NCBI GenBank assembly: GCA_905181725.1
Contig: CAJIYX010000016.1
Span: 1,738-65,737, forward strand
Origin: Alphaproteobacteria bacterium UBA830
GTDB lineage: Bacteria; Pseudomonadota; Alphaproteobacteria; MPNO01; UBA830
Length of the DNA: 64,000 nucleotides
Reading direction: 5' to 3'
Part shown: positions 21,567-41,758 of the stretch, piece by piece
How positions within the stretch are numbered: the first letter of the stretch is position 1
How the letters are laid out: each line of letters opens with the position of its first letter
Notes under the pieces: model-generated
The model's database searches: none
Seen by the model: only the letters and a program-made list of their open reading frames with translations
What the model was told of the DNA's origin: nothing
Translations under genes and position numbers: made by a program

Positions 21567-21582
21567 TTAAATGACGGTTAAC
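21567..21582. promoter_or_regulatory. CtrA consensus binding site
   Basis: TTAA-ATGACGG-TTAAC (TTAA-N7-TTAAC), about 70 bp upstream of the methyltransferase start. Confidence 0.7.
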
Positions 21583-22460
21583 TACTCGCCGACGTAGCGG
21601 AAAGCGAAGGCATCGCCTTCAGGCACGATGAAGCCGGCGGTGGGATTGGGAAAGTGCGATGGGATGATCGTGACGTCGCGATCGGCGTACCGATCGAGAA
21701 ACGCCTTGCGGGTCACGCGCGCGGTCGTCTGGTCGGCGCAGGCAATCGTGCTCCAGTCTGGGATATGGCACTGGATCATGTGATGCATCATGTCGCCGCA
21801 CAGGATCGCCTGATCGCTGCCCGAGGTCACGTTGAGCCCCACCATTCCCGGCGTATGACCGGGCAGCGGCTCGAGCGTCAGCCCGTCTTCGATCGCATAA
21901 TCCATATCGACGATGAGTTCTCGCTTTGCCTCTAGAATCGGGATCACGCTATCGGCGATGTAATCGCCCGTCCGCGTCAACTGGTCCTGCTCGGATTGCT
22001 GCATCCAGAAGTCGAGCTCGGTGCGCGAAAAAATATATTTCGCATTCGGGAAGGTCGGCACCCAGCGGCCGTCTTCGAGTTTCGTATTCCAGCCGACATG
22101 GTCGACATGCATATGAGTGCACAACACGAAGTCGATATCTTCCGGTGTCACACCCGCGGCGCGGAAATTATCCATCCACGGGAAAACCTGATCGTTGAAC
22201 ATATCGCGGTTGCGCGGCTTGTGATTGCCGACACAGGTATCGACCAGAATGGTGTGGTGCGGCGTGCGGATCAGAAAGGCCTGGATGTTAACCACCACCT
22301 TGCCACTGACCGGATCGAAATGGCGCGGCACCATCCAGTCTTTATGGGCCTCCACCGCACGTGGATCCCAGTCGGGAAAAAATTCCGTCGCGCCCAGCAT
22401 CGGCATTTCCATCTCGACGATGCGGGTGACGCTGATATCGCCGAAGCTGAAATCGAACAT
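21582..22460 (-). CDS. Metallo-beta-lactamase fold hydrolase
   Basis: ILVDTCVGNHK, THMHVDHVGWN (HxHxDH), PGHTPG, CGDMMHH, SHF. Start set at MFDFSFG (22460). Confidence 0.92.
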   Translation of the reverse strand: MFDFSFGDISVTRIVEMEMPMLGATEFFPDWDPRAVEAHKDWMVPRHFDPVSGKVVVNIQAFLIRTPHHTILVDTCVGNHKPRNRDMFNDQVFPWMDNFRAAGVTPEDIDFVLCTHMHVDHVGWNTKLEDGRWVPTFPNAKYIFSRTELDFWMQQSEQDQLTRTGDYIADSVIPILEAKRELIVDMDYAIEDGLTLEPLPGHTPGMVGLNVTSGSDQAILCGDMMHHMIQCHIPDWSTIACADQTTARVTRKAFLDRYADRDVTIIPSHFPNPTAGFIVPEGDAFAFRYVGE

Positions 22461-22464
22461 CAGA

Positions 22465-22986
22465 TTACTCGGGCCGGCCGGGATTTTCGTGGCCGCAGCT
22501 GTCGCAGACCTGGTTTGCCGGATCCGCATAAAAAGCTTCGAAGATCGGCGGCATGTCGCGTTCGAGGATATCGATATAGGCGTCCTGGCGGAAAATCTGG
22601 TGGTTGCACTTCTCGCAGAACCACGCAAACCCATCGAGCGGGTCGTCCTTCGAGCGCTTTATCTCGGCGATCATGCCGACCGTGCCGGCGGGGCGCATCG
22701 GCGCATGCGGCACGTAAGCCGGCAACATGAATACATCACCTTCCTTGACCTCGACATCGCGCGCCTTGCCGTCTTCCTGGATACGCAGAACGATATCGCC
22801 CTTGATCTGATAGAAAAACTCTTCAAATGCGTCGATATGATAATCCGTGCGCTTGTTGGGACCGCCGACAACCGTGATCATCAGTTTCGAATCCTTCCAC
22901 AGCGTCTCGCCGCCAACCGGCGGTTTCAGCTTATCGCCGTTATCGGAAATCCATTGCTGTATCTGGAAGGGATTTAGATCGCTCAT
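22465..22986 (-). CDS. nbaC: 3-hydroxyanthranilate 3,4-dioxygenase
   Basis: LKPPVG, VVGGPNKRTDYH, EEFFYQIKG, PHAPMRP, WFCEKC and CDSCG (rubredoxin-like Cys pairs). Confidence 0.95.
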   Translation of the reverse strand: MSDLNPFQIQQWISDNGDKLKPPVGGETLWKDSKLMITVVGGPNKRTDYHIDAFEEFFYQIKGDIVLRIQEDGKARDVEVKEGDVFMLPAYVPHAPMRPAGTVGMIAEIKRSKDDPLDGFAWFCEKCNHQIFRQDAYIDILERDMPPIFEAFYADPANQVCDSCGHENPGRPE

Positions 22987-22998
22987 CGTGTTTCCTCT

Positions 22999-23038
22999 CG
23001 GTCGGTCGGTCGGTCTGTCTGTCTGTCTGTCTGTCTGT
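22999..23038. repeat. Compound tetranucleotide microsatellite (CGGT)4(CTGT)6
   Basis: Read directly; it fills the spacer between the GST pseudogene stop and the GAGG RBS of nbaC. Confidence 0.95.
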
Positions 23039-23784
23039 CAGTTGGCGGGAACCGGTTTCAATGGTCCCCACATCCGGTCTTCAAAGGCTGGCGCTGCTGC
23101 CGCGTAGGATGGCCGTTGCTTAACTGCTGCGACCCATTCCGTCAGCTTTTCGAGCCCGTCGAACACCCATTCTCTATCAAGGTATTATATCCTGTCGACG
23201 ACCCCGGCAAGACAGATATCTGGCAGCGAAAATACACCACCGCAGACCCAGGGGCCACCGCTCTGACGGAACTGATTGTCGAGACGTTCCATGTGCCAGC
23301 GGAGTTTCTTTTCAGCCGCCGCGACCGCGTCAAGATCTGCCGGCGAACTTATCCGCTCCAGATAATCCTGCGCCCGCGCCTGATCGGGGTGCCGACGCGA
23401 CCATTGCGCAAGCTGATCCATACCGTAAGCAGCAGCCCGCATTTTCATCATGGTGTTGAAACTGAGCGTGACGATCAGCCGGAACAGGAATTCTTCCTCT
23501 TCTTTCATCCATTCACGCATTTGCGCCCGCAACACGGGACCTTCGGGCTTTAACGGTGGATCAGGAAAGACTTCATCAAGATATTCGGCAATGTTCGATG
23601 ACTGGATCACCGGGCGCCCGTCATGCACCAGCGTCGGCACCAGGCTATCCTGATATTCGGGCTGATAGTGATCGGACTTATACGTGGTCACCGGGCATAG
23701 CTCTCAGTCTTCCCGTTTTTCGGCAAGAACCATCCGCACTTTCATGCAGCACGGCGAATCCTAGAACTGATAACGCTCTATCAT
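23038..23784 (-). pseudogene. Glutathione S-transferase pseudogene (three in-frame stops)
   Basis: One frame: MIERYQF*DSPCCMKVRMVLAEKRED*ELCP...VPTLVHDG...SSNIAEYLDE...FSLPDICL...DRI*YLDRE...QRPSY; TAG 23761-63, TGA 23704-06, TAA 23185-87. Confidence 0.88.
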
Positions 23785-23928
23785 TTGTAGTCTGTCTTTC
23801 CGAATGAGTAATGACCCTGATTATACCAACTTATTGTTCGGGGAACCTCTCTCGATCGATGTCGGCGGGGGCTGGCATTCCGGGGTTCTTCGTGGCTAGA
23901 TCGCGGGACGATAATTTGGAGCAGGACG

Positions 23929-24981
23929 ATGAAATTCGGTCTCAATTTTTTCCCGAGCTGTGCGCCGGAAGAGCGCTCGGCGGAGAATTACTGGGCAGAC
24001 GCCCTGTATCTGTGCGGGCTGATGGATGAGTTCGGCTATACCCATGTCCGCACCGTCGAACATTACTTTCATCCCTATGGCGGCTACAGCCCGAACCCGG
24101 TCGTGTTCCTCGCCGCCGCCGCGCAGCGCTCGGCAAAAGCGAAGATGATTACCGGCGCGGTTTTGCCGGTGTTCAACAATCCGCTCAAGCTCGCCGGTGA
24201 ACTCGGTATGCTGGATGCGATCTCGAATGGGCGGCTCGAAATCGGTTTCGCCCGTGCCTTCCTACCGAACGAATTCGAAACATTCGGCATCGATATCGAG
24301 GAAAGCCGCGACCGCTACGAGGAAGGCGTCGAACAGATCAGGCTGTTGCTCGAAGAGGAAAACGCGACCCACGAAGGCAGGTTCCACAGCTTCACCGACG
24401 TCACCTCCCTGCCCCGCCCGACCCAGAAACCGCGCCCGCCCTTCTGGGTGGCGGCATTGAGCAGCAAGGCATCGTTCGAATTCGCCGGCCGGAACGGCCA
24501 TTACATCATGGGTATCCCGATGGGCGGTGGATTGATGACGGAGCTCATCGGCACCTATCGTGAGGAATGGAAATCCGCCGGGCATCCGGGCGAGGGCAAG
24601 ATCATGCTGTCGTTTTCGATGTGCGCGGATGAAAACGCCGCGGCCGCACGGGACGCGTTCCGACCGCCGCTGAACGCCTATCTAGACCAGCTAGTGGATG
24701 CCGCCTCAGGCTGGCTGAACGGTACCAGCACCAAGGACTACAAAGGCTATGACAAGATCATCGCGTCGCTGAAGGACGATGATTTCGACAGCCAGATGGA
24801 ACGCGGAATCTGCTGGGCCGGATCGCCCGCCGAGATCACCGACATGATCGCCGATTTCGACCGCCAGATCGGCGGGTTCGATATCGCATCTCTGCATGTC
24901 ATGCCGCATGTGATGGAAGCATCCGTCGCCGAAAAATCAATGCGCCTGTTTTCCGAACACGTCATGCCGAAGTTTAGCTAA
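23929..24981 (+). CDS. Luciferase-like (LLM) flavin-dependent monooxygenase, paralog 1
   Basis: MKFGLNFFP, VEHYFHPYGGYSPNP, NNPLKLAGELGMLDAISNGRLEIGFARA, LPRPTQKPRPPFWVAA. Confidence 0.92.
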   Translation: MKFGLNFFPSCAPEERSAENYWADALYLCGLMDEFGYTHVRTVEHYFHPYGGYSPNPVVFLAAAAQRSAKAKMITGAVLPVFNNPLKLAGELGMLDAISNGRLEIGFARAFLPNEFETFGIDIEESRDRYEEGVEQIRLLLEEENATHEGRFHSFTDVTSLPRPTQKPRPPFWVAALSSKASFEFAGRNGHYIMGIPMGGGLMTELIGTYREEWKSAGHPGEGKIMLSFSMCADENAAAARDAFRPPLNAYLDQLVDAASGWLNGTSTKDYKGYDKIIASLKDDDFDSQMERGICWAGSPAEITDMIADFDRQIGGFDIASLHVMPHVMEASVAEKSMRLFSEHVMPKFS

Positions 24982-25009
24982 GCCCACCTGCCCACCCATC
25001 TGCCCGCTG

Positions 25010-25770
25010 TCAGGATGTCTCCGCCGGGCATTGTGCCGCGCCGAGGATAGGCCCCTGGCGGTTATCCTGTGCCAGCACCGCGCAACCCTCGCCATCCGCC
25101 AGCTCAAAACCGGAAACCGGGATCGCCGTGGGCGTGCCCGACCATTTGCCGATTTTTTTCATACCGGTGACGATATTGTGGCTGAGCAGCGCCTTGCCCT
25201 TGTTCTCGCCCGAGCGCACCCGGGTTTCCTTCTATTTGATAAACCGGACAAGCCAGACCGAGCCCGTCGCCTTGACCGGTCCTGTAAGCGTTACCTTCTC
25301 GACCTTGCCGGACGCGAGGGTCACGCCGACATCGAGGCGTTCTTTGAGACCCTTCTCAGCCTCGCGGATCGCCGAGAGCACCGGCAGGCGGCGCGAGCCC
25401 ACGGCTTCGAGCTTGCCGTCAATGACCATCTGCGGCGTATAGATATTCCCGGTGCGGCAGATCTGCTGGTTATACGTGCGCTGTCGCTGTGTGTAGGCCG
25501 GATTGGAAAACGGATCCTTCCACTTGCCGTCCCCGCCATGCACCAGATTATCCCAGTAATCGACGTGGAATTCGAGCGCGATGACGGTTTTCTGTTCCGA
25601 CAGATCGCCCAGGAACTTCTCCGCCGGCGGACCGGAATAGCAGCCCTGCGACGTGAAAAGCTCAACACCACAGCGCCATTGCGGTCACCGGCGTTTGCGG
25701 CGGGGGCAGCGGCAATGGCCGACATCGTCAGCGCCAGGGCGACCGCGGGAAGAATGCGCATCTGTTTCAT
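25010..25770 (-). pseudogene. DUF1223 (thioredoxin-fold, secreted) pseudogene
   Basis: Signal peptide, then a frameshift near 25665 into VELFTSQGCYSGPPA...FHVDYWD...YTPQMVIDG; in-frame TAG at 25232-34, then RVRSGENKG...HNIV...GPILGAA. Confidence 0.85.
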
Positions 25771-25880: not shown

Positions 25881-26744
25881 TTATTTCTCGTTTTTGACCG
25901 GGTTCGACAGAATGCCGATCTTTTCAATCTCGATTTCGCAGGTATCGCCGTCCTTCAGGAAAATGGCGGGCTTGCGGACGAAACCGACACCGGCAGGCGT
26001 ACCGGTAAGGATAATATCACCCGGCAGCAGCGTGAACACCTTGGCCAATTCGTGAACAAGGGTCTTGGTATCGAAAATCATTTCGCGGGTGTTCGAATCC
26101 TGCAGCACCTTGCCGTTCACGCGGCACTGCATTTTGAGCCCCTTGGCACCGGCCGGCAGTTCGTCGGCGGTGACGAAATCCGACCCGATTGAGCCCGTGG
26201 CATCGAAGTTCTTGCCCATGGCCCACTGCGACGATTTCATCTGGTAATCGCGGATGGAGCCTTCATTGGCGACCGAATAGCCGGCAACGTAATCGAGCGC
26301 TTCGCTCTTTTTGATGTTGCGGGCCTTCTTGCCGATGACGGCAACCAGCTCGGCCTCGTAATCGAAATGCTTCGACAGTTTCGGCCGGATAATCGGCTGC
26401 CCCTGCGCCACGAAGGACGTGGTGAAACGGGTGAAGACAACCGGATAGGTCGGGATCTTCAAACCGGCTTCTGCGGCATGATCCTTATAGTTCAGCCCGA
26501 TACAGATGATCTTATTGGGCTCCTGGATAGGCGTCAGGTAATTGACGCGGCCCTTTACCATCGCGCGCGGCGGTGCCTTGGCTGCCGCACGGCCAGCCTT
26601 CTGCATCGCACCCTTGCCCTTCGCGATAAGTTCCTTGAGGTCGGTCGGCAGTGTCTTGTCGACCTTGGACAGATCTACCAGACCGGCATCGGTACGGACG
26701 CCGAGCTTGGCCTTGCCGTCTTTTTTGAAAGCGACGAAACGCAT
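25881..26744 (-). CDS. Fumarylacetoacetate hydrolase family protein
   Basis: KIICIGLNYKDHAAE, DYEAEL, NEGSIRDYQ, GKNFD, GDIILTGTPAGVG. Confidence 0.94.
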   Translation of the reverse strand: MRFVAFKKDGKAKLGVRTDAGLVDLSKVDKTLPTDLKELIAKGKGAMQKAGRAAAKAPPRAMVKGRVNYLTPIQEPNKIICIGLNYKDHAAEAGLKIPTYPVVFTRFTTSFVAQGQPIIRPKLSKHFDYEAELVAVIGKKARNIKKSEALDYVAGYSVANEGSIRDYQMKSSQWAMGKNFDATGSIGSDFVTADELPAGAKGLKMQCRVNGKVLQDSNTREMIFDTKTLVHELAKVFTLLPGDIILTGTPAGVGFVRKPAIFLKDGDTCEIEIEKIGILSNPVKNEK

Positions 26745-26862: not shown

Positions 26863-27555
26863 CTACTGCAGCGCGTAGCCTTTTTCATAGTGCAGGAAAA
26901 TGCCGTCAAAATAGAACCAGCGCATGCGAGCACTTTCACGCGCAAAATGAATCGCGGCTTCTTTCATCTCCGGCGTGGTGCAGTGACGGTCAAGAACTTC
27001 GAATCCCCGGTTGCTGTGTTCGATATCGACTTCGGAATGCAGCCAGAAATGTTTGATGGCTTCTTCGTCGTATTTGTAATTTTCACGCAACGACGGCAAC
27101 ACCCGGCTGTATAGCCTGGGGGACTGGGATTCCGTCCCGATCCGGATCGCCGCGATACCGCAATACCAGGGCGCATCGCGGGCCACCTGTTTCAGCCACG
27201 CGGCCCAGGACCGCGTTGTCGGCAGACCTTCGCCCTGGCGCACCGCACCGAGATCCGCTCCGTTCGCTTCGGCGAACTGAAGGACGATTTCCATGTGCGG
27301 CTCGTCGGGGTCTTCTTCCTCATGGAAATTTGCAATCTCCAGCTCGATCACATCTGCTGGCGCCTTGGAACATATCTGGAAGGTCGCCTCGGTCAGCATG
27401 TTCGATATCCAGTGATAGTGCTCGACCGCCCAGCCCATGCAGGCGTTCTTGCCGAGATCGCCTGCCGCCAGCATGTCCCACATGGGATGATCGGCGCAGT
27501 GCCGCTCGTCGACGGCCGCTTCGAGCGCGAGCCGGAAATCTGACTTACTCATCAC
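26863..27555 (-). CDS. Heme-oxygenase-like diiron (CADD/PqqC/TenA-fold) redox enzyme
   Basis: HPMW...AGDL start; metal-ligand pattern E-x6-H (EEDPDEPH), E (GTESQ), H-x3-D-x2-H (HSEVDIEH). Confidence 0.85.
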   Translation of the reverse strand: MMSKSDFRLALEAAVDERHCADHPMWDMLAAGDLGKNACMGWAVEHYHWISNMLTEATFQICSKAPADVIELEIANFHEEEDPDEPHMEIVLQFAEANGADLGAVRQGEGLPTTRSWAAWLKQVARDAPWYCGIAAIRIGTESQSPRLYSRVLPSLRENYKYDEEAIKHFWLHSEVDIEHSNRGFEVLDRHCTTPEMKEAAIHFARESARMRWFYFDGIFLHYEKGYALQ

Positions 27556-27562
27556 GTTCTCC

Positions 27563-28621
27563 TTACGTTTTCAAAAATTTCGGAATGACCTCGCGGCCGA
27601 ACAATTCCATCGATGCACGTGCCATCTCGACCGGCATCATTTTTGTATTCACCTGCAGCGACGCAACATCAAAACCACCAATCTGCGTATGGAAATCCGA
27701 GATCATGTCACAGCACTCTTCGGGGCTGCCAATGAAGGCTGCACTTTTCTCACGCTGGGTGTGCACGTCCTCTTTCGACAGAACCTCGATCATCTTTTCA
27801 TAGCCGGGATAATCTTTTGAGCTTGCCCCGCTGCCCCAATCCGACGCGGCATCGGTCAGGGTCTCGAAATATGCCTTCACATCCGGGCCAGCCTCATCGA
27901 TTGCCCGTTCGGTCGTCGGCGCGCAATACATCATGAAGGCGAGCGCGACCTTGCCCCTGCCCGGATGGCCCGCTTTCGCCCATTCTTCGTGATAGATGCC
28001 GAGCAATTCGTGCAGCTTGGCGCCACCGATGGGGTTCGCCATGCAGTTGAACCCGTTGCGCCCCGCGAACTCGAAGCTCTCGACGCTCTGCAGCGCGGCA
28101 ACCCAGATCGGCGGATGCGGCTGCTGCGTCGGGCGCGGCAGCGAGGTTACATCTTTGAAGCTGTGGAACTTCCCTTCCATTGAGATGTTTTCGCTCGATA
28201 GCAATGCGCAGATCTGTGCGACACCTTCATCATACCGATCCCGGCTTTCGTCCAGGCTGACGCCAAACCGCCTGAACTCATGGGGCAGAAAGGCGCGCGC
28301 CATACCGATATCGGCGCGGCCGCCGGAAATCGCATCCAGCATCGCGATCTCGCCCGCGAGTTTGAGCGGATTGTTGAACGCGGGCAGTACGGCACCAGTC
28401 ACCAGGCGCGCGTGCTTCGTGCGCTGCGACGCGGCCGACAGAAACACAATCGGGTTCGGGCTGTAACCGCCGTAAGCGTGAAAGTAATGCTCGACCGTGC
28501 GGACATGGGTGTAGCCCAGCGAGTCGCACAGATCGACAAGGCTCAGCGCTTCGTTCCAGTAATCCCATCCCGATTTTTCGGCTTCGCCCACATTGGGGAA
28601 AAAACTGATTCCGAATTCCAT
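27563..28621 (-). CDS. LLM flavin-dependent monooxygenase, paralog 2
   Basis: MEFGISFFP, VEHYFHAYGGYSPNP, NNPLKLAGEIAMLDAISGGR, LPRPTQQPHPPIWVAA; ends 7 bp before the diiron gene. Confidence 0.92.
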   Translation of the reverse strand: MEFGISFFPNVGEAEKSGWDYWNEALSLVDLCDSLGYTHVRTVEHYFHAYGGYSPNPIVFLSAASQRTKHARLVTGAVLPAFNNPLKLAGEIAMLDAISGGRADIGMARAFLPHEFRRFGVSLDESRDRYDEGVAQICALLSSENISMEGKFHSFKDVTSLPRPTQQPHPPIWVAALQSVESFEFAGRNGFNCMANPIGGAKLHELLGIYHEEWAKAGHPGRGKVALAFMMYCAPTTERAIDEAGPDVKAYFETLTDAASDWGSGASSKDYPGYEKMIEVLSKEDVHTQREKSAAFIGSPEECCDMISDFHTQIGGFDVASLQVNTKMMPVEMARASMELFGREVIPKFLKT

Positions 28622-28701: not shown

Positions 28702-28800
28702 ACGGATCGCCGACTCACGACGGCTATGGTCTTCCTATCCGGTGGTGTAGAACGGTGAGGCGTTCTGCGGAAAGCAGATGATGGCAGCGGAAAGACCACG

Positions 28801-30688: not shown

Positions 30689-30797
30689 GTCTTACTTCTC
30701 CTCGTTATCTGGTTATCGGCACCGCAATGACGGCGAACTCGCTTCCGATAGACCTGTATTCTGCCGTCAAAATGCGGCAATTTCCAGTTAAAATGTG

Positions 30798-30807
30798 CAG
30801 TATACTA
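30798..30807. promoter_or_regulatory. Putative MarR operator upstream of the preA-like gene
   Basis: CAGTATACTA in the AT-rich spacer between hydantoinase B and preA. Confidence 0.5.
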
Positions 30808-30833
30808 CGTATTAAATCCTCTCTTCCCGCCCT

Positions 30834-32595: not shown

Positions 32596-34671
32596 TCAGT
32601 CCTTCGTCTCGAAGTTGATAGTGTAATTGTTCAACGCGTCGATCGACACCAGGTCGCCCGGCCCGACCAGGATGGTGGTCGTCGCCTCCTCGATAATGGC
32701 GGGACCGGCGAAGGTCTGACCGTGATGCAGATCGGCACCGCGATAAATCGGCGTGTCGAGGAATTCGCCGACCGATTCCGCATAGACCGGGCGGGAATCG
32801 ATGGGCTCGACCGGTTTGTCGACCGGATCGTAGGTCGGGTACTGCAACGGCGGCAGCTTGCCGATACCGACAACCCGCAGCTTGGCGACGTTGATCCGGC
32901 TTTCGGGATTGGTGTGGCCGAACTGGCGGTCGTATTCGCGCTCGAACGCGGCACGGATTTCAGCCGGCGTCGCATCCGGGGCGAGCGAGACGCGCACGTC
33001 CCATTGCTGACCTTCGTAATGCAGGTCGAGCTCGTAACCGAATGTCGTGTCGTCCTTTGTGAAACCTTCTTCGCCGAGCGCATCCAGCGCCTGCACCTCA
33101 AGCTGGGCGTAGCCGTCCGCAATAGCGGACGCGACGTCATCGCCAAGCTCGCGCATCACGACATGCACGAAATCGCGCCGCACATCGGCGTGCTGCATGC
33201 CGATGGCGCAGAATGCACCGGCCTGACGCGGAATATAGACTGCGCGCGCGCCGAGCTTGCGCCCGACACTCGTGCCATGCATCGGCCCGGCGCCACCGCA
33301 GGCGATCAGCATGAACCGGCCGGGGTTGTAGCCGCGCTGGATACTGATGCGCTCGACCGCGTGCAGCAGATTCTGTTCAACAATCCGGATCAGCCCGGCT
33401 GCCGCTTCGGTCCGCGAAATGCCGAGCGGGTTGGCAATCTCGGTATCGATGGCTTTCTCGGCCGCTGCCAGATCAAGCGAGACCGAGCCGCCTGCATACG
33501 GCCCGGGCCGCATCCGCCCCAGCACCAGATGCGCGTCCGTCACGGTCGGGCGTGTCCCGCCATGACCGTAGGCCGCGGGACCCGGGCGCGCGCCGGCACC
33601 TTCGGGCCCAGCATACATCAGACCGGCCGCGTCGATGCCCGCAATCGTGCCGCCGCCCGCGCCGACGGTGTGAATATCGACCGACGGCGTGACCAGATCA
33701 TAATCGTTGACTGACAGCGCATCGGTGATCGCGACGCGCCCTTCATGCATCAGCATCACGTCGCAACTGGTGCCGCCGATTTCCATACTGACCAGATTGT
33801 CTTCGCCAATCCCGGCGGCGAGGTGCTGCATTGCGCCGACACCGGCGGACGGACCCGACAGCAGCAGGTTTACCGGCTGGCGGATCAACTGGTCGAGAGA
33901 GGCCGCCCCGCCATTGCTCTGCAGCATCAGCAGCTTGGTCTTCAGCCCCATGTCGATTAGCTTCTGCTGCAGCGCCGTGAGGTACGATGCTACACGCGGC
34001 ATCACATAGGCGTTCACCGCCGTGGTCGATGTGCGTTCATATTCGCCCATAACCGGCACGATGTCGGACGACACCGAAATCCATTCGCAGATATTTTCTT
34101 CGCGCAGAACCTCGGCGACCGCGTCTTCATGGGCCGTATTGACGAAGCTGTTGAGCAGGCTGACGGCGATGGATTCGACGTCGTTCTCGGCAAAGATTTT
34201 ACAGGCGGCGCGAACGTCATCGAGATTGAGCGCTTCGACTTCAGACCCGTCGGCCGCAATACGCCCGGCAACGGGCAGACGCAGATAGCGCGGCACCAGC
34301 ACCGGCGGATAGGGCGTGCGGTGATCCCAGGGATCCTTGCGCAGGCCGCGGCGCGCTTCGAGGCTGTCGCGAAAGCCCTTTGTGGTCAGCAGACCGACCC
34401 GCGCGCCCTTGCCTTCAAGCAGGGTGTTGGTCGCGACCGTGGAGCCATGCAGGAAAAACTGACAATCGCCGAGAAATTTTTCCATGGTCTGGTCGAGCGC
34501 GGCACAGGCGGTGTTCAGCGCCGAGATCACGCCTTCGCCGGGATCAGCGGGCACCGACGGCACCTTAAAAACATCGGTACGGCCGTTGCTATCGGCGATG
34601 ACAAGATCGGTAAACGTGCCGCCGACATCGACGCCGACGCGCCAGGGCGGTGACTGAATGGTTGTGGTCAT
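32596..34671 (-). CDS. Hydantoinase A/5-oxoprolinase family subunit (ATP-binding)
   Basis: GVDVGGTFTD, HGSTVATNTLLE, EYERTSTT, SGPSAG, IGGTSCDV, GAGGG, AGARPGPAAYG, TVTDA, GGAGPMH, GPAIIEE. Confidence 0.94.
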   Translation of the reverse strand: MTTTIQSPPWRVGVDVGGTFTDLVIADSNGRTDVFKVPSVPADPGEGVISALNTACAALDQTMEKFLGDCQFFLHGSTVATNTLLEGKGARVGLLTTKGFRDSLEARRGLRKDPWDHRTPYPPVLVPRYLRLPVAGRIAADGSEVEALNLDDVRAACKIFAENDVESIAVSLLNSFVNTAHEDAVAEVLREENICEWISVSSDIVPVMGEYERTSTTAVNAYVMPRVASYLTALQQKLIDMGLKTKLLMLQSNGGAASLDQLIRQPVNLLLSGPSAGVGAMQHLAAGIGEDNLVSMEIGGTSCDVMLMHEGRVAITDALSVNDYDLVTPSVDIHTVGAGGGTIAGIDAAGLMYAGPEGAGARPGPAAYGHGGTRPTVTDAHLVLGRMRPGPYAGGSVSLDLAAAEKAIDTEIANPLGISRTEAAAGLIRIVEQNLLHAVERISIQRGYNPGRFMLIACGGAGPMHGTSVGRKLGARAVYIPRQAGAFCAIGMQHADVRRDFVHVVMRELGDDVASAIADGYAQLEVQALDALGEEGFTKDDTTFGYELDLHYEGQQWDVRVSLAPDATPAEIRAAFEREYDRQFGHTNPESRINVAKLRVVGIGKLPPLQYPTYDPVDKPVEPIDSRPVYAESVGEFLDTPIYRGADLHHGQTFAGPAIIEEATTTILVGPGDLVSIDALNNYTINFETKD

Positions 34672-34703: not shown

Positions 34704-34719
34704 AGGGAGTATACTCCCT
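34704..34719. promoter_or_regulatory. 16-bp perfect palindrome upstream of hydantoinase A (putative MarR operator)
   Basis: AGGGAGTATACTCCCT, 33-48 bp upstream of the ATG at 34671. Confidence 0.65.
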
Positions 34720-34735: not shown

Positions 34736-35920
34736 TCAATCGTCAAATGGCAACCCGACATAATTCTCGGCAAGGGCCCGCGCGCCGGCCTCGGTGCTGG
34801 TCACGAAATCAAGCTCGGCGAGCTGGGTGCGGCGCTCGAACGGGCTGGATTCCGGAAAACGGTGCATCAGGGTTGTCAGCCACCACGAGAACCGCTGCGC
34901 CTTCCAGACCCGGCGCAGGCAGGTTTCGGAATAGCGCTCCAGCCGACTGTCATCGCCCTTCTTGTAATGATCCATCAGCGCACGCCACAGGTAGCGCACG
35001 TCGCCGACGGCAAGGTTCATCCCTTTCGCACCGGTTGGCGGCACGATATGGGCGGCGTCGCCGACCAGGAACATGTTGCCGAACCGCATGGGCTCGGCGA
35101 CGAAGCTGCGCATCGGCGTGATGCCTTTTTCCAGCAACGGTGCGGGCACCAGGTTTTTCGCGCCTTCATCATCCAGCCGGTAGGCCAGCTCGTCCCAGAT
35201 ACGGTTATCCGACCATTCGTTGATGTCTTCATCCGGTGCGCACTGGAGATAGAACCTGCTCAATGTCATTGACCGCATGCTGTACAACGCGAATCCGTGA
35301 TCGGTATTGGCATAGACCAGCTCGTCCGAGACCGGCGGCGTTTCGACAAGGATGCCGAGCCACGCAAACGGATAGACGCGTTCGAACAGGTTGATACGAT
35401 CATCGGGAATGCTGCTGCGGGACACGCCGTGAAAACCGTCGCACCCGGCGAGAAAATCGCATTGAATTTCATGCGCCTCGCCGTCTCTGCTGTAGCGGAT
35501 CGACGGCTGGTCGGTATCGAAATCGTTTACCGTGACGTCCTCGGCCTCGTACACAATCTGCGCGCCGGCGGCATGAAGCGCGTTGTTCAGGTCCTTTGTC
35601 ACCTCGGTCTGGCCATAGACCATGACGGTCTTGCCGCCGGTCAGTTTCAGAAAATCAATTGCATGGCGCTCACCGTTGAAACACAGCTCGACCCCGCCAT
35701 GGAGCAGCCCTTCTTCATGCATCCGCTCACCGACCTGGGCCTCATCCAGCAGGTCCATGGTGCCCTGTTCGAGCACACCGGCGCGGATACGCCCTTCGAC
35801 GTATGCCCGGCTCTGGCGCTCGACGACGATGCTATCAATCCCCTGTAGTGCCAGCAGGCGTGACAGCAGCAGCCCGGACGGCCCGGCGCCGACGATACCG
35901 ATCTGTGTTTTGTGGATCAT
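34736..35920 (-). CDS. pobA: 4-hydroxybenzoate 3-monooxygenase
   Basis: TQIGIVGAGPSGLLL, RIRAGVLEQG, VYGQTEV, CDGFHG, YPFAWLG, GDAAHIVPPTGAKGMNLA, AENYVGLP. Confidence 0.95.
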   Translation of the reverse strand: MIHKTQIGIVGAGPSGLLLSRLLALQGIDSIVVERQSRAYVEGRIRAGVLEQGTMDLLDEAQVGERMHEEGLLHGGVELCFNGERHAIDFLKLTGGKTVMVYGQTEVTKDLNNALHAAGAQIVYEAEDVTVNDFDTDQPSIRYSRDGEAHEIQCDFLAGCDGFHGVSRSSIPDDRINLFERVYPFAWLGILVETPPVSDELVYANTDHGFALYSMRSMTLSRFYLQCAPDEDINEWSDNRIWDELAYRLDDEGAKNLVPAPLLEKGITPMRSFVAEPMRFGNMFLVGDAAHIVPPTGAKGMNLAVGDVRYLWRALMDHYKKGDDSRLERYSETCLRRVWKAQRFSWWLTTLMHRFPESSPFERRTQLAELDFVTSTEAGARALAENYVGLPFDD

Positions 35921-36527: not shown

Positions 36528-38137
36528 ATGACCACAGGATTTACGCGTTTCGCGGCCATTGCGGTTGCGACAGCAAGCATTTTGACGGCGCAGAGTGCGG
36601 CGGCGGGGGTACTCATTACCTCAAACCCCACCCGAAGCGATTGGTTTGATCCAGGTAACTGGGTTGGGCGGGAATACACCCGACACAGTGGGGGAAGACG
36701 CTCGGCTTACTACCGGGATGATTGTCACCGTGAATGACTTTTCCATCGGTGGCATCAAGCCCCACTCATCACAGTCATTATTCATGGGTACGAACGGATC
36801 AAACACCGGCACTCTGCGGCTTAACGGTATATCTGGTTCGGTCGGCGCGGGCACCGCGGGCTTCGACAGCAGCACCTGTCGCCCACCTCGCGGTCAGCGG
36901 CAGTGGCGTGTTCACAAATGCCGGATCAAGCACTCTGGCAATTGACCGGATCAGCGTGAGTGGCAACGGATTTCTCCGCAATCTCACCAATCCCAGCGGG
37001 CGCATGGACCTCGGCGCCGGTCAGCACCAAATAGAAGATTCCGGCGGGATGGACAACACGGGTATCCTGCAACTGTCCGGGACCCTGACCCTGCGCAACA
37101 ACAGCGAGGTCCTGAACGATAGCCCCGGTGATTTCTCGAATTCAGGTGGTCAATTTTTCATCGCAAACACGAACAAATTCGAAAACAAAGGATCATTCAC
37201 GCACTCAGCAGGCCTGATGCAAACAACAAGTGCCGGTCAGCTTCTGAATAGCGACACGTTCTCCATAACCGGCGGTAATCGCCTCCTGCTGGGCACTACG
37301 CAGAGCCTGAACACGGATAATTTTTCCCAGACATCCGGCAACACAGATATTGGAAGTGGTTTCTTCGTCAATTCGAACACTTTCAATAATATTGGCAATT
37401 ACAACCACAACGGCAGCACGACGAATATCAATAACGGCGCGATACTGCTGAACGACTTCTTTTACACTCACAACGACGGCGCCCTGACGGTGCACGCCGG
37501 CGGGCAGTTCACCAACAGCCTCATCAACACCCTTAACGGCGGGACGGTCCAGGTAAGTGCCGGCGGCACGCTCAACGGCACCGGTTCCACATCTCTGAAC
37601 GGCGGCACGCTGGTTATGAACGGCCTGATGGTCCAGTCCGGCGTGACAATCACGGACAGTACGCTGCAGGGATCCGGAACGGTGCGTAGTCACGTGAACA
37701 ATACCGGCGGCACGGTCGGCCCCGGTAATTCGCCGGACACGCTGACGGTCGACGGCAATTACACGCAAGGGTCCGGCGGCACGCTGGCGATGGAAATAGA
37801 CTCCCTGCTTTCCTGTGACGTGCTCGACATCAGCGGCATCGCGGCGCTGGACGGTATTCTCGACCTGACGGTCGATGCCGGGTATGCGGCCTCGGCAATG
37901 GACGGCGACAGCTTCACTATCGTTGAATGGGACAGTTTTTCGGGCGCGTTCGCGACCGTGAACGGGCTTAACTTCGCCACCGGCAAGTTTTTCACCCTGC
38001 ATTACGGCGAAAGCGGCCTGACGCTGACGGTGAATGCCCAGACCGTCGTCGGCGTGCCGGAACCCGGCACGATCGCGCTGTTCGGGCTGGGTGTGGCCGG
38101 GATCGGGTTCGCCCGGCGGCGTCGGCAGCGGTCTTAA
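36528..38137 (+). pseudogene. Large beta-helix-like PEP-CTERM surface protein with two +1 frameshifts
   Basis: Signal peptide MTTGFTRFAAIAVATASILTAQSAAA...DWFDPGNWVG; shift near 36667 to GNTPDTVG...FDSST; shift near 36876 to VAHLAVSG...GPGNSPDTLTVDGNYTQ...VPEPGTIALFGLGVAGIGFARRRRQRS. Confidence 0.85.
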
Positions 38138-38146: not shown

Positions 38147-38172
38147 GTCATCCCCGCGAAAGCCGGGATGAC
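38147..38172. repeat. REP-like hairpin with a GAAA tetraloop
   Basis: GTCATCCC-CGCGAAAGCC-GGGATGAC. Confidence 0.65.
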
Positions 38173-38187
38173 GCCTCAATAAAATTC

Positions 38188-38273: not shown

Positions 38274-38313
38274 ATACTATTAAAACCCAATGAAGCCGTG
38301 GCGGCTCTCGTAT

Positions 38314-39384
38314 CTACGCCGCCGCGACGCCGTCGGTTTTCTGCTCATCCCCGTACAGGCGGCGCAGAACACGGCGCATGGCCAGCAGGCCTTCATCGGC
38401 CGGGATCGTGCCACGCGGGTTCGCATCGCGGCTGGGGGATTGCGGGTCCATATCGATGGCGCGCTGCTGGGCCTCGTAAATATCGAGATCCTCTTTGAGC
38501 ACGCCGTCCATCTGTTCGACGAACAGGCCGCGCATGTGATCCGGCACCATGTCCCTGTGCCCGGCGACGGTCCAGAACTGGTGCGTCGTGGTCTCGGTCT
38601 CGGGCGTCATCGCGTGATAGACGACGAAGCCCCACTTACCCTGATCGTTATTGCGCGTGTCGGTATCGGCACCGACCCCGGCATCGACCGAGCCGTTATT
38701 GATATTGATATAGGCAGGCGGCAGGAACTGGCTCATCTGCCAGCGGTCGATATTGGTCTCGTACCCGGCATATTCACGAAACGCGAGCGCCGGTTCGATA
38801 TCTTCCATCCAGCGCGTCACCCGCACGTTGTCGTCTTCCAGATCGACCGACAGGTTGGCGGCTTCCGCGACCGCGCGATTGCCGGTGGTCGAGCCATGCA
38901 CATAGGTCAGGTGCGACAGGTCCAGCAGGTTGTCGAGCACGAGGCGGTATCCGGCCTTCACGTATGTCTGGCCCTGCGCGCGGATCCAGTCTTCATCCAG
39001 GTTGTGCTTCGGGTATGCGGGGATGGTCGCTTCATCGGCAAGCGCGGGGTCGCCCGGCCAGTAGAATACCCAGCCATGGCGTTCGGCGACCGGATAGGTG
39101 CGCACTGTCGCCCAGTCCGGCGGCGTAGGCGAGCCCGGCAGATGGGTGCAACTGCCGGAACAGTCATAGACCATGCCGTGATAGCCGCATTCGATCTCGT
39201 CGCCGATCAACCGGCCTTCGGAGAGCGGCAGGTTGCGATGCGGACAGCGGTTTTCAAGGGCGACCGGCGTGCCGTCTTCCTTGCGGTAGAGCACGACATA
39301 TTCGTTCAGAAGAACGCGCCCCAGGAGTTCGCGCCCGACGTCTTTCGACCAGGCGGCTACGTACCAGGCATTTTTCAGGAACAT
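38314..39384 (-). CDS. VanA-type Rieske oxygenase (O-demethylase-like, alpha-only type)
   Basis: MFLKNAWYVAAW, CPHRNLPLSEG...CGYHG, DNLLDLSHLTYVH, NIDRWQ, HAMTPET, EDLDIYEAQQ, DEG...RR. Confidence 0.92.
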   Translation of the reverse strand: MFLKNAWYVAAWSKDVGRELLGRVLLNEYVVLYRKEDGTPVALENRCPHRNLPLSEGRLIGDEIECGYHGMVYDCSGSCTHLPGSPTPPDWATVRTYPVAERHGWVFYWPGDPALADEATIPAYPKHNLDEDWIRAQGQTYVKAGYRLVLDNLLDLSHLTYVHGSTTGNRAVAEAANLSVDLEDDNVRVTRWMEDIEPALAFREYAGYETNIDRWQMSQFLPPAYININNGSVDAGVGADTDTRNNDQGKWGFVVYHAMTPETETTTHQFWTVAGHRDMVPDHMRGLFVEQMDGVLKEDLDIYEAQQRAIDMDPQSPSRDANPRGTIPADEGLLAMRRVLRRLYGDEQKTDGVAAA

Positions 39385-39483
39385 CTTTTTTCTCCCACGA
39401 CGGTATATGTCTGTCCACGTCTGACTGCTTCCGACCACGTCTGTCTAGATTTTACCACGGCCGCCCGGCGCCGCATATTTCAT

Positions 39484-39539
39484 CAGTATACCCCGTTAAT
39501 TCCTGTTCACAACCGGATTCAACAAATCTCAGTATACTG
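39484..39539. promoter_or_regulatory. Two putative MarR operator sites in the Rieske/MarR2 divergent promoter
   Basis: CAGTATACCC (39484-39493) and perfect CAGTATACTG (39530-39539). Confidence 0.6.
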
Positions 39540-39567
39540 CGGACTGCCCAGCCGATATGGTTTCGCC

Positions 39568-40089
39568 ATGACAGAAACCAAACCTAAAACCGGCGGCTCT
39601 TCAACGAGCACCGGATCTGGCGGCTCATTAACGAGCCTGTGGGAACGCCCCGGCTATCTTGTCCGTCGGCTGCATCAGATCCATGTCGCTATCTTTCTGG
39701 ACGAATGCAGCGATTACGCCACCACGCCGGTGCAGTATGCGGTGATGACCGCCCTACTCAACAATCCCGGCGCGGATCAGGTCACGCTTGCCAATGATGC
39801 CGGAATCGATCGCACAAATATCTCCGACGTGCTCGCGCGGCTGGCGGAGCGCGGCCTGGTCAAACGCGAAGCGGGGAAACAGGACCGCCGGATGCGGGTC
39901 GCCAATCTGACCCAAGAGGGCGACCGGATCGCCCGCGATATGGAACACGCATCGCTCAGCGCGCAAGCCCGGCTGATGGCGCCGCTCTCGGCGGAAAAAC
40001 GCGATCAGCTCATGTCATTGATGGGCGAACTGGTCGATGCCAATAACGAATTCAGCCGTGCACCCGCCCGCAAACGTCCCGCCGATTAA
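39568..40089 (+). CDS. MarR family regulator (PcaV/MobR-like), paralog 2
   Basis: LWERPGYLVRRLHQIHVAIF...TPVQYAVM...DQVTLANDAGIDRTN...DRRMR; clearly homologous to the MarR at 28801. Confidence 0.92.
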   Translation: MTETKPKTGGSSTSTGSGGSLTSLWERPGYLVRRLHQIHVAIFLDECSDYATTPVQYAVMTALLNNPGADQVTLANDAGIDRTNISDVLARLAERGLVKREAGKQDRRMRVANLTQEGDRIARDMEHASLSAQARLMAPLSAEKRDQLMSLMGELVDANNEFSRAPARKRPAD

Positions 40090-40111
40090 TACCCCCGACA
40101 AGAACCTCCCA

Positions 40112-40140
40112 TAAAAAAAGGGGCGGCCGAAGCCACCCCT
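40112..40140 (-). terminator. Intrinsic terminator after dctP
   Basis: Minus strand AGGGGTGGC-TTCG-GCCGCCCCT followed by a T run (cUUCGg tetraloop). Confidence 0.85.
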
Positions 40141-40168
40141 GATTTTCGCATTCGCTAAAAAGCGCGAT

Positions 40169-41173
40169 TTACATGTTGCGCTTGGCCGCGTCCTTGAGCA
40201 GGCCGTAAATCTTGCGCACGCCTTCGTTCTTGTGCTTACCGAGGAATTCGTCGCCCAGCGGACGCACGGTGTCCATGAACGCTTTCTGATCGGCGGAGGA
40301 CAGGCGGATCACTTCGGCGCCGTTATCCTTCCATAGTTTTTCGGCTTTCTTGCCGAAAGCAGCAGCGGTGTCGTTGTTCCACTGACTCATGGCGGCAAGC
40401 TCGGACGTGACAGCGTCACGCTGTTTCGCCGACAGTTTTTTGAGCCAGATGTCGCTCACCATCACGACGCTGGGAATCATCCCGCTTTCGACAACGGTGA
40501 TCGACTTGGTGACCGTGAAGAACTTCGATCCGCCCATGACGATGATCGAGCTGCGCACCGCGTCGACCGTGCCGCGCTGCAACGCCGGCAGCACTTCGGT
40601 ATAGGGGATCGGCACACCGGCGGCGCCGAACTTGCGGACCAGGGTGCTTTCCATCTTGGTGGCGAGCACACGAATCTTGCGGCCCTTGAAGTCCGCCAAG
40701 GTGCGGATCGGTTTCTTGCTGGCGAATGAAGTCGGCCCGTAGACATACATCGATGCCATGGTGATGCCGCGCGCCGAAGCGAGCTTGGAATACGGTTTGA
40801 AGAACGCCGGATCATTCAGCGATTTAAACGCGTGGTTGATATCGGTGAACAGACCCGGGGCATCCGGCACCTGGAAGGCGGGATTAATCCCGACGAGGAA
40901 GCCCGGCGGCGTGATCAACGCTTCGAGCGTGCCGAACTGGAGACCTTCGATCATCCGCGGAATTTTCCCGATCTGACCGGCCGGGAAGATGCTGACCTTG
41001 ATGCCTAGTTCCTTGTTGCCGCCAATCCGTTTCTGGATTTCCTGCGCGATCGCGTGCTGCGGATCGTTGATAGTACCGTAGCCGATCTTCATTTCGCTTT
41101 GTGCGGTCGCAGCGGTCGCAAAACCAGCGACGGCGAGCGCCGCAATCGCGCCAAGATATTTGTGTGTCGTCAT
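40169..41173 (-). CDS. TRAP transporter substrate-binding protein (DctP family), no dctQM adjacent
   Basis: Signal peptide; FPAGQIG, VPDAPGLF, DFKGRKIRV, VPIPYTEVLPALQRGTVD. Confidence 0.9.
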   Translation of the reverse strand: MTTHKYLGAIAALAVAGFATAATAQSEMKIGYGTINDPQHAIAQEIQKRIGGNKELGIKVSIFPAGQIGKIPRMIEGLQFGTLEALITPPGFLVGINPAFQVPDAPGLFTDINHAFKSLNDPAFFKPYSKLASARGITMASMYVYGPTSFASKKPIRTLADFKGRKIRVLATKMESTLVRKFGAAGVPIPYTEVLPALQRGTVDAVRSSIIVMGGSKFFTVTKSITVVESGMIPSVVMVSDIWLKKLSAKQRDAVTSELAAMSQWNNDTAAAFGKKAEKLWKDNGAEVIRLSSADQKAFMDTVRPLGDEFLGKHKNEGVRKIYGLLKDAAKRNM

Positions 41174-41353
41174 CGTGACTCTCCCATTCAAAATAAAATC
41201 CCAGTCCAGACTCTAACGGGCGGCGCTCAACATGCCAATTATCGTTAGAAATCTAACCATCAGTATGGTGAGCGGTCTCGCAGCGAGTCAATAGAGCGGC
41301 ACCGCCGGATCGTGTTAAATGGACGGAAGGAAACAGGATAGAAGGACGCAAAA

Positions 41354-41758
41354 ATGACCAGTAAATCCGTCGGCACCAGCCCCGCAACAGTGGCCCCGCC
41401 TATGAAGCCCCATTATTCAAACAGTATCCGGACCAAAAGCGGCCCGCTGCTTTTCGTGGCCGGACAGGTCGCTCTGAACGCGGAGAGCAAGCTGGTCGGC
41501 GAAGGCGATATCCGGGCCCAGACAACGCAGGTGCTTGAAAATATCCGGGCCATCGTCGAAGCGAATGGCGCGACCATGGCCGATCTTGCGCAGGTGACGG
41601 TCTATGTCACGAACATAGCGGCGTTCAGCCTGGTTTCCGACATCCGCGAACGCTATTTCCCGGCCGACGGCCCGGCATCCGCAATTGTCGAGGTATCGGC
41701 GCTCGCCTGGCCGGAATTCCTGATCGAGATCTCCGCCGTCGCCGCGCTGCCCGGATAG
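41354..41758 (+). CDS. RidA/YjgF family imine deaminase
   Basis: HYSNSI, LFVAGQVAL, GDIRAQTTQVLENI, VYVTN, IRERYF, PASAIVEVSALAWPEFLIEISAVA (catalytic Arg present). Confidence 0.92.
   Translation: MTSKSVGTSPATVAPPMKPHYSNSIRTKSGPLLFVAGQVALNAESKLVGEGDIRAQTTQVLENIRAIVEANGATMADLAQVTVYVTNIAAFSLVSDIRERYFPADGPASAIVEVSALAWPEFLIEISAVAALPG

Follow-up and report, generated by a model that had tools for sequence, protein, structure and literature searches.

A conserved MarR-associated locus of uncultured marine Alphaproteobacteria that pairs an orphan PreA-like reductase with a putative ATP-dependent lactamase

Introduction

Do the catabolic genes crowded into 20 kb of an uncultured alphaproteobacterial genome belong to one pathway and, if so, on what kind of compound might it act? 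The interval in question (21582–41758) lies within a 64,000-nucleotide stretch of contig CAJIYX010000016.1 of Alphaproteobacteria bacterium UBA830, here called the window, to whose positions all coordinates refer; the source (G000, the contig being its C16) is a 3.13-Mb metagenome-assembled genome (MAG), 87% complete. A first-pass annotation made from the letters alone had proposed a single undescribed system for an N-heterocyclic or aromatic-amide compound, listing a metallo-beta-lactamase-fold (MBL) hydrolase, 3-hydroxyanthranilate 3,4-dioxygenase (HAO), a decayed glutathione S-transferase (GST), two luciferase-like monooxygenases (LLM1 and LLM2), a heme-oxygenase-like dimetal oxidase (HDO), an FAH-family enzyme, hydantoinase subunits HyuA and HyuB, a PreA-like reductase, PobA, a VanA-type Rieske oxygenase, the solute-binding protein DctP, a RidA and two MarR regulators. 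Gene calls from a six-frame open reading frame (ORF) listing, with Pfam and NCBIfam scans, recovered every one of these in place. The comparison covered 26 species genomes of the family, all uncultured marine Alphaproteobacteria and 13 of them high-quality, together with a tblastn matrix over 80 genome loci carrying a close relative of HDO, the first bait, and ORF clustering.

The reading that we prefer, to which we give about even weight, is of a vertically inherited, MarR-controlled catabolic locus in which interchangeable oxygenases surround an invariant engine. That engine would consist of an orphan FMN/2×[4Fe-4S] enzyme of the dihydropyrimidine dehydrogenase (DPD)/dihydroorotate dehydrogenase (DHODH) family, the PreA-like enzyme (29351–30688, minus strand; Pfam DHO_dh and Fer4_21); HyuA (32596–34671, minus; Hydant_A_N, Hydantoinase_A and Hydant_A_C) and HyuB (30834–32591, minus; Hydantoinase_B), the predicted alpha and beta subunits of an ATP-dependent lactamase/hydantoinase; an FAH-family C–C hydrolase or decarboxylase (25881–26744, minus; FAA_hydrolase); and the repressor MarR1 (28801–29298, plus; MarR). 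HyuA, HyuB, the PreA-like enzyme, FAH, VanA, LLM1, LLM2, MBL, MarR1 and MarR2 all score far below every curated NCBIfam cut-off.

A conserved core with variable neighbours

The 20-kb gene order recurs in other genomes, including one of another genus. Two genomes of the window's genus (G004 and G007) carry the order MBL-HAO-GST-LLM1-DUF1223-FAH-LLM2-MarR1-PreA-HyuB-HyuA-PobA-VanA-MarR2-DctP-Rid at 74–97% amino acid identity and share even the flanking two-component system; a third (G006) has the same order minus PobA, and the whole order is found again, at 74–97% identity, in a member of another genus (G024). Trimmed versions read Rid-DctP-MarR2-VanA-HyuAB-PreA-MarR1-FAH-LLM1-MBL (G014), Rid-VanA-HyuAB-PreA-MarR1-FAH-MBL (G021) and HyuAB-PreA-MarR1...FAH (G010).

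Common to every family locus examined, from about 20 species, are HyuA, HyuB, the PreA-like enzyme, MarR1 and FAH; the PreA-like enzyme is present in 23 of the 26 family genomes and in all 13 of high quality, with identities that track taxonomy. Wherever, among the 80 loci, an HDO at least 76% identical to that of the window occurs, the genes HyuA-HyuB-PreA-(MarR1)-(LLM2)-HDO-FAH stand together, and in one complete chromosome six genes of this set lie alone between mreCD-pbp2-rodA and unrelated genes. VanA, Rid, MBL, DctP and MarR2 are frequent members, and the cluster has TRAP or TAXI-TRAP components joined to it. Variable members are HDO, LLM1 (in about half of the family loci), LLM2, HAO, PobA, a CoxL-type molybdenum (Mo) hydroxylase (beside vanA in L010–L012), a MetE-like protein and a TAXI-TRAP transporter. 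All four combinations of presence and absence of HDO and LLM2 occur among the family loci, and a metagenome contig whose PreA is 92% identical has neither. The MetE-like protein (~390 aa, partial Meth_synt_2) is inserted between marR1 and LLM2 in L008, L010 and L015, and is also found near HDO in Binatia loci (L004/L005).

The earlier claim of a single catabolic set therefore stands in part: the locus is real, syntenic and co-regulated in appearance, but it is not one obligatory pathway, HDO, LLM1, LLM2, HAO and PobA being dispensable. Horizontal transfer or misbinning of the island, an idea prompted by the lack of HDO in the other genomes of the genus, was considered and rejected, in part on the substitution rates of HDO given below and also because pyruvate kinase on the same contig is 89–95% identical to that of same-genus genomes, which moreover carry the island minus HDO. 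A FAD-linked oxidase on the left, tried as a further member, is glcD of a glcDEF operon, and glcDEF followed by glycerate kinase and pyruvate kinase are conserved chromosomal neighbours on that side.

Beyond the family, PreA-like orthologues of 60–73% identity lie beside MarR, CoxLMS Mo-hydroxylases, HyuAB, an amidase, a DAO-type oxidase and a 7Fe ferredoxin, and others beside M20 peptidases, MFS transporters, Rid and VanA-type genes. MAGs labelled Burkholderiaceae, Hyphomicrobiales and Betaproteobacteria contain related modules. A metagenome scan with the PreA alignment returned mostly canonical PreA at ~30% identity, because the ELNFGCPH motif is common to both, and about 20 loci were informative. 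The 80 loci with an HDO relative are all from MAGs (Alphaproteobacteria/Rhodospirillaceae, Defluviicoccus, Binatia and Chloroflexota), as are all named sources of PreA-like relatives, and no cultured carrier was found among the HDO and PreA-like matches. The genome itself has at least eight HyuA/HyuB pairs, at least eight VanA-type Rieske proteins, at least eight CoxL-type large subunits and several FAH proteins, a very high catabolic paralogy for a 3.1-Mb MAG; the PreA-like enzyme and HDO are each present once.

Operators and regulators

A palindrome of 22–24 bp centred on AGTATACT precedes hyuA, preA and vanA. The window has three copies of the core, where 0.09 would be expected, and the 3.13-Mb genome has nine, those three included. 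One site lies between hyuB and preA (palindrome 30790–30815, core 30799–30806), one between pobA and hyuA (34705–34718, as GGGAGTATACTCCC, with the core at 34708) and one in the divergent vanA–marR2 promoter region (39484–39538), where a CAGTATACTG palindrome at 39530–39539 (core at 39531) is joined by a half-site at 39484–39491. An extended element resembling AATACGTAGTATACTACGTATT precedes the same three genes in relatives of several genera. The preA operator keeps its place in L006, L008, L012, L090–L093 and L095, the hyuA operator is retained in L001/L018, L006, L013, L017, L091, L093 and L095, and the upstream site of vanA is matched in L008 and L092. Judged by motif conservation, this is the phylogenetic footprint of a putative regulon joining vanA, hyuAB and preA.

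That the promoters of the interval share a palindrome, as the first-pass annotation had it, is true of hyuA, preA and vanA/marR2 but not of the divergent intergenic region between marR1 and LLM2/FAH, where AGTATACT is absent with up to two mismatches allowed. Motif comparison finds a different conserved element there, CGTTCTACACC(A), at 28745–28753, common to the window, L006, L009, L012, L090, L091, L092 and L095.

The two regulators are homologous, as had been recognised, MarR1 being 44% identical to MarR2 (39568–40089, plus; Pfam MarR on the C-terminal part of ORF 38290–40089, the start codon read from the sequence). They show the winged-helix domain, the divergent gene arrangement and the putative palindromic operator of MarR-family repressors of aromatic-acid genes (PcaV, HpaR and NicR type), and the best NCBIfam models for both are HpaR and Saro_0803, far below cut-off. 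MarR1 is the probable binder of the AGTATACT operators, since it is the only MarR in some operator-bearing loci (L013, L017, L018 and L092).

Two further AGTATACT sites, on other contigs of the genome (C22:15707 and C162:12124), lie in AT-rich stretches that have the tandem half-sites TTGTATACTTAGTATACTAAAA and AAATAGTATACTAAGTATAGTA; a HyuAB pair, a DctP paralogue and a fragment of LigB are likewise on contig C22, and a MarR on contig C96 is 41–45% identical to MarR1 and MarR2. These sites and this MarR may belong to a paralogous regulon. MarR genes also recur beside LLM genes: in the window a third LLM (48066–49172) is followed by a third MarR (49194–49628) and a Mem_trans/AEC-type transporter (49711–50649), and on contig C11 an LLM 57–59% identical to LLM1 and LLM2 adjoins a MarR.

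Enzymes of the engine

The PreA-like enzyme aligns with residues 531–838 and 945–1006 of pig DPD. On that alignment, in the residue numbering of pig DPD (N609, N668, C671, N736 and T737), the counterparts of N668, C671 and N736 are kept, whereas T737 is replaced by arginine. The cysteine (C147), which in DPD is the proton donor, lies in the motif ELNFGCPH, aligned to ELNLSCPH of DPD, and is invariant in 118 relatives, as are N144, K187, N214, R215 and R85. R215 is the residue that stands at the T737 position in the pairwise alignment; R85 lies in a loop (FYSRSGYS) opposite the N609 region of DPD, which it does not resemble. The invariance of R85 and R215 suggests that they may bind a carboxylate and that the substrate is anionic. 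PreA is the best NCBIfam model, at 224.8 bits against a cut-off of 335, and neither the window nor any of about 25 related loci has a PreT gene next to the PreA-like gene, no genome-wide search for PreT having been run.

HyuA matches the Pseudomonas jessenii enzyme 6yra (E=4e-134, 452 bits) and the N-methylhydantoinase 7hk5 (E=2e-125, 423 bits) in the PDB more strongly than acetophenone carboxylase (328 bits) or acetone carboxylase (243 bits), and on these scores is closer to caprolactamase and N-methylhydantoinase than to the carboxylases of its family. The best NCBIfam model for HyuB is the caprolactamase beta subunit; CapA (591.8 bits) and CapB (366.7 bits) stay under their cut-offs of 1000, below equivalog level. 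FAH has L-2,4-diketo-3-deoxyrhamnonate hydrolase (8gsr) as its best PDB match, followed by HpaG, and is probably a 2,4-diketo-acid C–C hydrolase or decarboxylase.

The dimetal oxidase HDO

Seven base pairs downstream of LLM2 lies HDO (26863–27552, minus; Pfam PF14518 and PF03070), a CADD-like protein on which the first-pass annotation had partly built its system. Its best match is the 4-aminobenzoate synthase 9pj4 (profile E=6e-24), with whose motifs its six ligands (E80, H87, E142, H173, D177 and H180), all invariant, align. Tryptophan (W26) and valine (V152) stand at the CADD tyrosine and lysine positions, the tyrosine position being taken by threonine in most relatives. The sacrificial residues of CADD are Tyr27 and Lys152; a role for HDO as 4-aminobenzoate synthase was rejected on account of W26 and V152 at their positions.

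HDO was likewise rejected as the defining core of the cluster: 13 of the 26 family genomes have it, and all six others in the window's genus cleanly lack it. In G004, G006 and G007 its absence takes the form of a clean indel of ~0.7 kb that leaves an LLM2–FAH spacer of 150–186 bp. The window's HDO is intact, with every ligand in place. Against its closest orthologue (L006), it has a dN/dS of 0.04 at a dS of ~1.25; by this measure it is under strong purifying selection, and such values argue for old vertical descent with loss in the sister species.

Relatives across the HDO family most often adjoin TctC/TctA and TRAP transporters, bicupins, Amidohydro_2 proteins, CoA-transferases, short-chain dehydrogenases/reductases and Mo-hydroxylases. 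FAH is a neighbour too, and such surroundings point to a catabolic setting. In loci L019–L031, from Defluviicoccus and other alphaproteobacterial MAGs (HDO identity 68–73%), an HDO paralogue, a Rid and HDO form a trio, with a VanA-type protein 63–67% identical to that of the window ~4.3 kb downstream; in L003/L029 its neighbours are a CoxSML Mo-hydroxylase, a xanthine/uracil permease and a creatininase-fold protein.

Other oxygenases, transport and accessory genes

The VanA/DdmC-type Rieske monooxygenase (38314–39384, minus; Pfam Rieske and VanA_C) is closest in the PDB to the dicamba O-demethylase DdmC (E=1e-44). Its CPH...CGYH and DNLLDLSHLTYVH motifs are intact, so that the Rieske CxH...CxxH pattern, the VanA_C domain and the DxxHxxxxH motif are all present; neither VanB nor a ferredoxin with reductase was found for it in the interval or in orthologous loci. 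LLM1 (23929–24981, plus; Bac_luciferase, FMN-dependent) and LLM2 (27563–28621, minus; assigned by Pfam) are 58% identical, in keeping with their description as paralogues. LLM2 has as its best PDB match 7BIP (E=2.3e-86), which is the rishirilide enzyme RslO1 (PMC8093152).

The MBL-fold hydrolase (21582 to ~22472, minus; Lactamase_B) belongs to the lactonase/methyl-parathion-hydrolase clade, and in the PDB it comes closest to an unnamed MBL-fold hydrolase (7y7u), the N-acyl homoserine lactone lactonase 4zo2 and methyl-parathion-hydrolase-type enzymes. A long ORF reaching 22634 overlaps HAO; the true start is placed near 22472 because orthologues have 292–305 aa, or about 296. DctP (40169–41191, minus; Pfam DctP) is an orphan TRAP solute-binding protein with no adjoining DctQM genes, and its orthologues adjoin the cluster in L014, L093, L095, L096–L098 and L099. 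Its best PDB match, a distant relative, is 4nn3 (E=8e-32, 114 bits), a structure solved with bound orotic acid (PMC11668362); we take this match as a weak hint of orotate.

The Rid-family protein (41354–41758, plus; Ribonuc_L-PSP, E=6e-29) has the YjgF/Rid fold. Imine hydrolysis by E. coli RidA requires the catalytic arginine R105; here serine replaces it (GPASAIVEV against PARSxVEV in RidA), and the protein scores 86.9 bits with TIGR00004 against a cut-off of 106.25, which corrects the original label of RidA.

PobA, 4-hydroxybenzoate 3-monooxygenase (34736–35920, minus; TIGR02360 equivalog, 615.6 bits against 538.7), lies between vanA and hyuA. Among the family loci examined it is confined to the window, G004, G007 and G024; in G006, G014 and G021 it is absent and vanA abuts hyuA. 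HAO (22465–22986, minus; nbaC equivalog TIGR03037, 216.5 bits against 145.95) is restricted among the examined loci to the window's genus, a closely related metagenome contig (L099) and G024, the locus labels being L006, L090, L091 and L099 only. Downstream enzymes of its pathway, such as ACMS decarboxylase and the semialdehyde dehydrogenase, are not in the cluster, Pfam finding neither Amidohydro_2 nor an aldehyde dehydrogenase in 21582–41758. Elsewhere the genome has six or seven LigB-type and two intradiol dioxygenases, which could take the product of PobA, and a second pobA beside ligB. On this distribution we regard PobA and HAO as ordinary aromatic-acid enzymes lodged in the cluster in the window's genus, and for that reason the aminophenol-type intermediate of the first-pass annotation, drawn from HAO, an accessory gene, is unsupported as a property of the conserved system.

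The decay of GST (23185–23691, minus; partial GST_N and GST_C matches only) is real: the window's copy is truncated at both ends, and it is a genuine remnant, since same-genus G004 has an intact orthologue of ~245 aa. Between LLM1 and FAH lies a second pseudogene that had been missed, a DUF1223 gene (approximately 25013–25666, minus), located by tblastn with the L006 orthologue, in which Pfam DUF1223 is present. The two are 71% identical over 218 aa, with an in-frame stop inside the alignment, and the CxxC motif has been lost (CYSCPP to CYSGPP). DUF1223 and GST are both intact in same-genus genomes without HDO. Between pobA and vanA, and likewise missing from the first inventory, is a PEP-CTERM protein gene (36529–38137, plus; Pfam PEP-CTERM). 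Its signal peptide (start 36529) is in another frame than its 467-aa body (36734–38137), which apparently reflects a frameshift or an assembly error; it is absent from this position in G004 and G024 and is an insertion unrelated to the cluster. On the right flank, a Rieske alpha subunit (Ring_hydroxyl_A type, 475 aa) adjoins an AraC-family regulator at 54817–57393, with a GMC oxidoreductase, an adenosine deaminase and a thiamine diphosphate enzyme nearby, a second catabolic neighbourhood.

A possible route

Taken together, the chances are about even that the cluster breaks down a carboxylated ene-lactam N-heterocycle, first reducing the ring, then opening it with ATP and finally hydrolysing a C–C bond. 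Built on gene content, synteny, operators and residue conservation, which were observed directly, the inferred steps would begin with uptake, helped by the TRAP binding protein, of a carboxylated unsaturated cyclic amide with a six-membered or possibly five-membered ring, of the pyridone- or pyrimidone-carboxylate type. The PreA-like enzyme would reduce the ring C=C bond in conjugation with the amide carbonyl, in the manner of DPD and DHODH, with a proton from the conserved cysteine and electrons from a separate partner passing through its two Fe–S clusters. The lactam, no longer aromatic, would then be hydrolysed by HyuAB at the cost of ATP, ammonia would leave the resulting amino or enamine acid, and FAH would cleave or decarboxylate the resulting beta-dicarbonyl acid to central metabolites. 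VanA, LLM1, LLM2, HDO and, in some relatives, the CoxL-type hydroxylase may act as optional front-end or side-branch oxygenases that adapt related substrates, and repression would act separately before vanA, hyuAB and preA through the ~22-bp palindrome.

Reduction next to an amide followed by ATP-dependent lactam opening, already suggested in the first-pass annotation, fits all of the comparative evidence, including the Mo-hydroxylases, HyuAB and amidases that neighbour PreA-like genes outside the family. Xanthine-oxidase-family Mo-hydroxylases install a carbonyl next to a ring nitrogen, and the recurrence of such an enzyme beside PreA-like orthologues indicates N-heteroaromatic substrates.

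Several points weigh against this route. The PreA-like reaction may run in either direction, and none of the loci has PreT or an NAD(P)H-binding partner. As the Rid protein lacks the arginine for imine hydrolysis, the deamination step is left without an assigned catalyst; the proposed roles of FAH and MBL are guesses from distant relatives (E ~1e-48 and ~1e-22, respectively), and the orotate binder is no more than a remote relative of DctP. HDO, the LLMs and VanA are tied to the engine by position only, given that the cluster persists without them in some species, and with HyuAB, VanA-type and CoxL genes so dense in this genome (at least eight of each), some of the adjacency may be incidental.

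Alternative explanations

The interval might instead be a juxtaposition of known modules with no common pathway, in which PobA feeds protocatechuate cleavage, HAO serves 3-hydroxyanthranilate or NAD metabolism, VanA is a vanillate-type demethylase, HyuAB a 5-oxoprolinase-like housekeeping lactamase, PreA a pyrimidine reductase and FAH catalyses a gentisate- or homoprotocatechuate-type step. PobA and HAO do pass their equivalog cut-offs, ring-cleavage dioxygenases of the LigB and intradiol types and a second pobA beside ligB are available elsewhere, HyuAB, VanA and FAH have many paralogues in the genome, and the accessory genes vary freely. Yet HyuAB, PreA, MarR1 and FAH never part in ~20 species, one conserved operator precedes vanA, hyuAB and preA, the remaining enzymes (HyuAB, PreA-like, FAH, VanA and both LLMs) are far from equivalog level, and the PreA-like protein has no PreT, an arginine at T737 and an R85 loop unlike that of DPD; we consider this explanation rather unlikely.

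A variant of reductive pyrimidine catabolism (of uracil, thymine or orotate), with HyuAB replacing dihydropyrimidinase or dihydroorotase as an ATP-driven ring opener, would account for a DPD/DHODH-family enzyme with its catalytic cysteine kept and PreA as its best model, for the orotate bound by the closest solved relative of DctP, for the M20 peptidases or amidases (possible carbamoylases) beside some PreA-like orthologues and for a weak RutC match of Rid. What makes it decidedly improbable is that the PreA score remains below its cut-off, that PreT is missing and no locus of the family has a carbamoyl-amino-acid amidohydrolase, that the same arginine and dissimilar R85 loop would have to be explained, and that FAH, VanA and MarR-type control are ill-suited to pyrimidine pathways.

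The VanA-type oxygenase has no reductase gene and the PreA-like enzyme no PreT, which together allow a more speculative reading. The two might exchange electrons directly or through a small ferredoxin, by way of the two [4Fe-4S] clusters of the PreA-like enzyme. Oxygenation of the ring would in that case keep a fixed stoichiometry with its dehydrogenation or reduction and need no NAD(P)H; in relatives a lone CoxL-type hydroxylase would be the donor, and HDO would be the first dimetal HDO to act on a small molecule in catabolism, partly redundant with a flavin-dependent LLM. We regard this arrangement as very doubtful. A biosynthetic cluster tailoring a secondary metabolite, with LLM2 and HDO as tailoring oxygenases as in polyketide or amino-acid-derived natural products, has next to no probability: LLM2 is indeed closest to RslO1 (PMC8093152), and characterised HDOs act in biosynthesis (PMC13185094), but polyketide synthase, non-ribosomal peptide synthetase, terpene and ribosomally synthesised peptide core genes are all absent, the solute-binding proteins, MarR repressors, FAH, lactamase and PobA point to breakdown, and the remainder of the cluster persists where LLM2 and HDO are absent.

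Relation to known systems

To return to reduction followed by ATP-driven opening of a carboxylated ene-lactam, the nearest analogues are the reductive pyrimidine route and nicotinate fermentation. With the PreTA/PydA pyrimidine route the cluster shares an FMN and 2×[4Fe-4S] DPD/DHODH subunit with a catalytic cysteine and two ring-binding asparagines and, by inference, the logic of reducing a C=C bond next to an amide before the ring is hydrolysed. It differs in having neither PreT nor a carbamoylase, in the arginine at T737 and the dissimilar R85 loop, in an ATP-dependent HyuAB in place of an opener of the amidohydrolase superfamily, and in the FAH and Rieske genes attached. Nicotinate fermentation in Eubacterium barkeri proceeds through a Mo-containing nicotinate dehydrogenase, 6-hydroxynicotinate reductase and enamidase. 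The order would be the same, with hydroxylation next to the ring nitrogen, reduction of the pyridone and hydrolysis of the ene-lactam, and several relatives have Mo-hydroxylases beside the PreA-like gene; however, reduction and opening fall to other enzyme families, the cluster is aerobic with O2-dependent oxygenases, and the window has no orthologue of the Mo-hydroxylase, the best match in its own genome to the CoxL of L011 being 42% identical. The chance is about even that the cluster works as these two routes do, from different enzyme families.

The two-subunit Hydantoinase_A/B architecture of CapAB, 5-oxoprolinase and N-methylhydantoinase, with 6yra and 7hk5 as the closest structures, is that of HyuAB, although none of these enzymes is known to be constantly paired with a PreA-like reductase and the CapA and CapB cut-offs are not reached. 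HDO has the heme-oxygenase-like fold and the E-x6-H, E, H-x3-D-x2-H ligand motifs of CADD/PabS, but not the consumed tyrosine and lysine; it also differs in its catabolic neighbourhood and in being dispensable within the genus. As in VanAB and DdmABC, the Rieske and VanA_C oxygenase has intact metal motifs and is divergent from a MarR gene, whereas no locus has a VanB-type reductase gene and the operator suggests that the genes regulated together with it are those of a lactamase and a reductase, not ring-cleavage genes. Homarine catabolism was rejected as a match: the homABCDER operon is built from enzymes unrelated to those of this cluster, among them a TgnAB-like flavoenzyme pair, a peptidase and an aldehyde dehydrogenase (PMC13236597). 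Literature searches on HDO with hydantoinase, hyuA/hyuB with DPD, kynurenate clusters and caprolactamase with N-heterocycles returned nothing on this cluster; no matching published pathway was found, in agreement with the initial impression that the gene combination is undescribed.

Significance

Within a family of uncultured marine Alphaproteobacteria the engine is found almost throughout, yet not one of its enzymes attains equivalog level. The conserved operator and the two MarR regulators offer a direct handle on the inducer. Once the substrate is identified, a function could be assigned to an orphan branch of the DPD/DHODH family and to a new ATP-dependent lactamase, a class of interest for the hydrolysis of stable lactams; its identity would also test whether CADD-type dimetal oxidases work in catabolism, and would add a route to the marine cycle of dissolved organic nitrogen.

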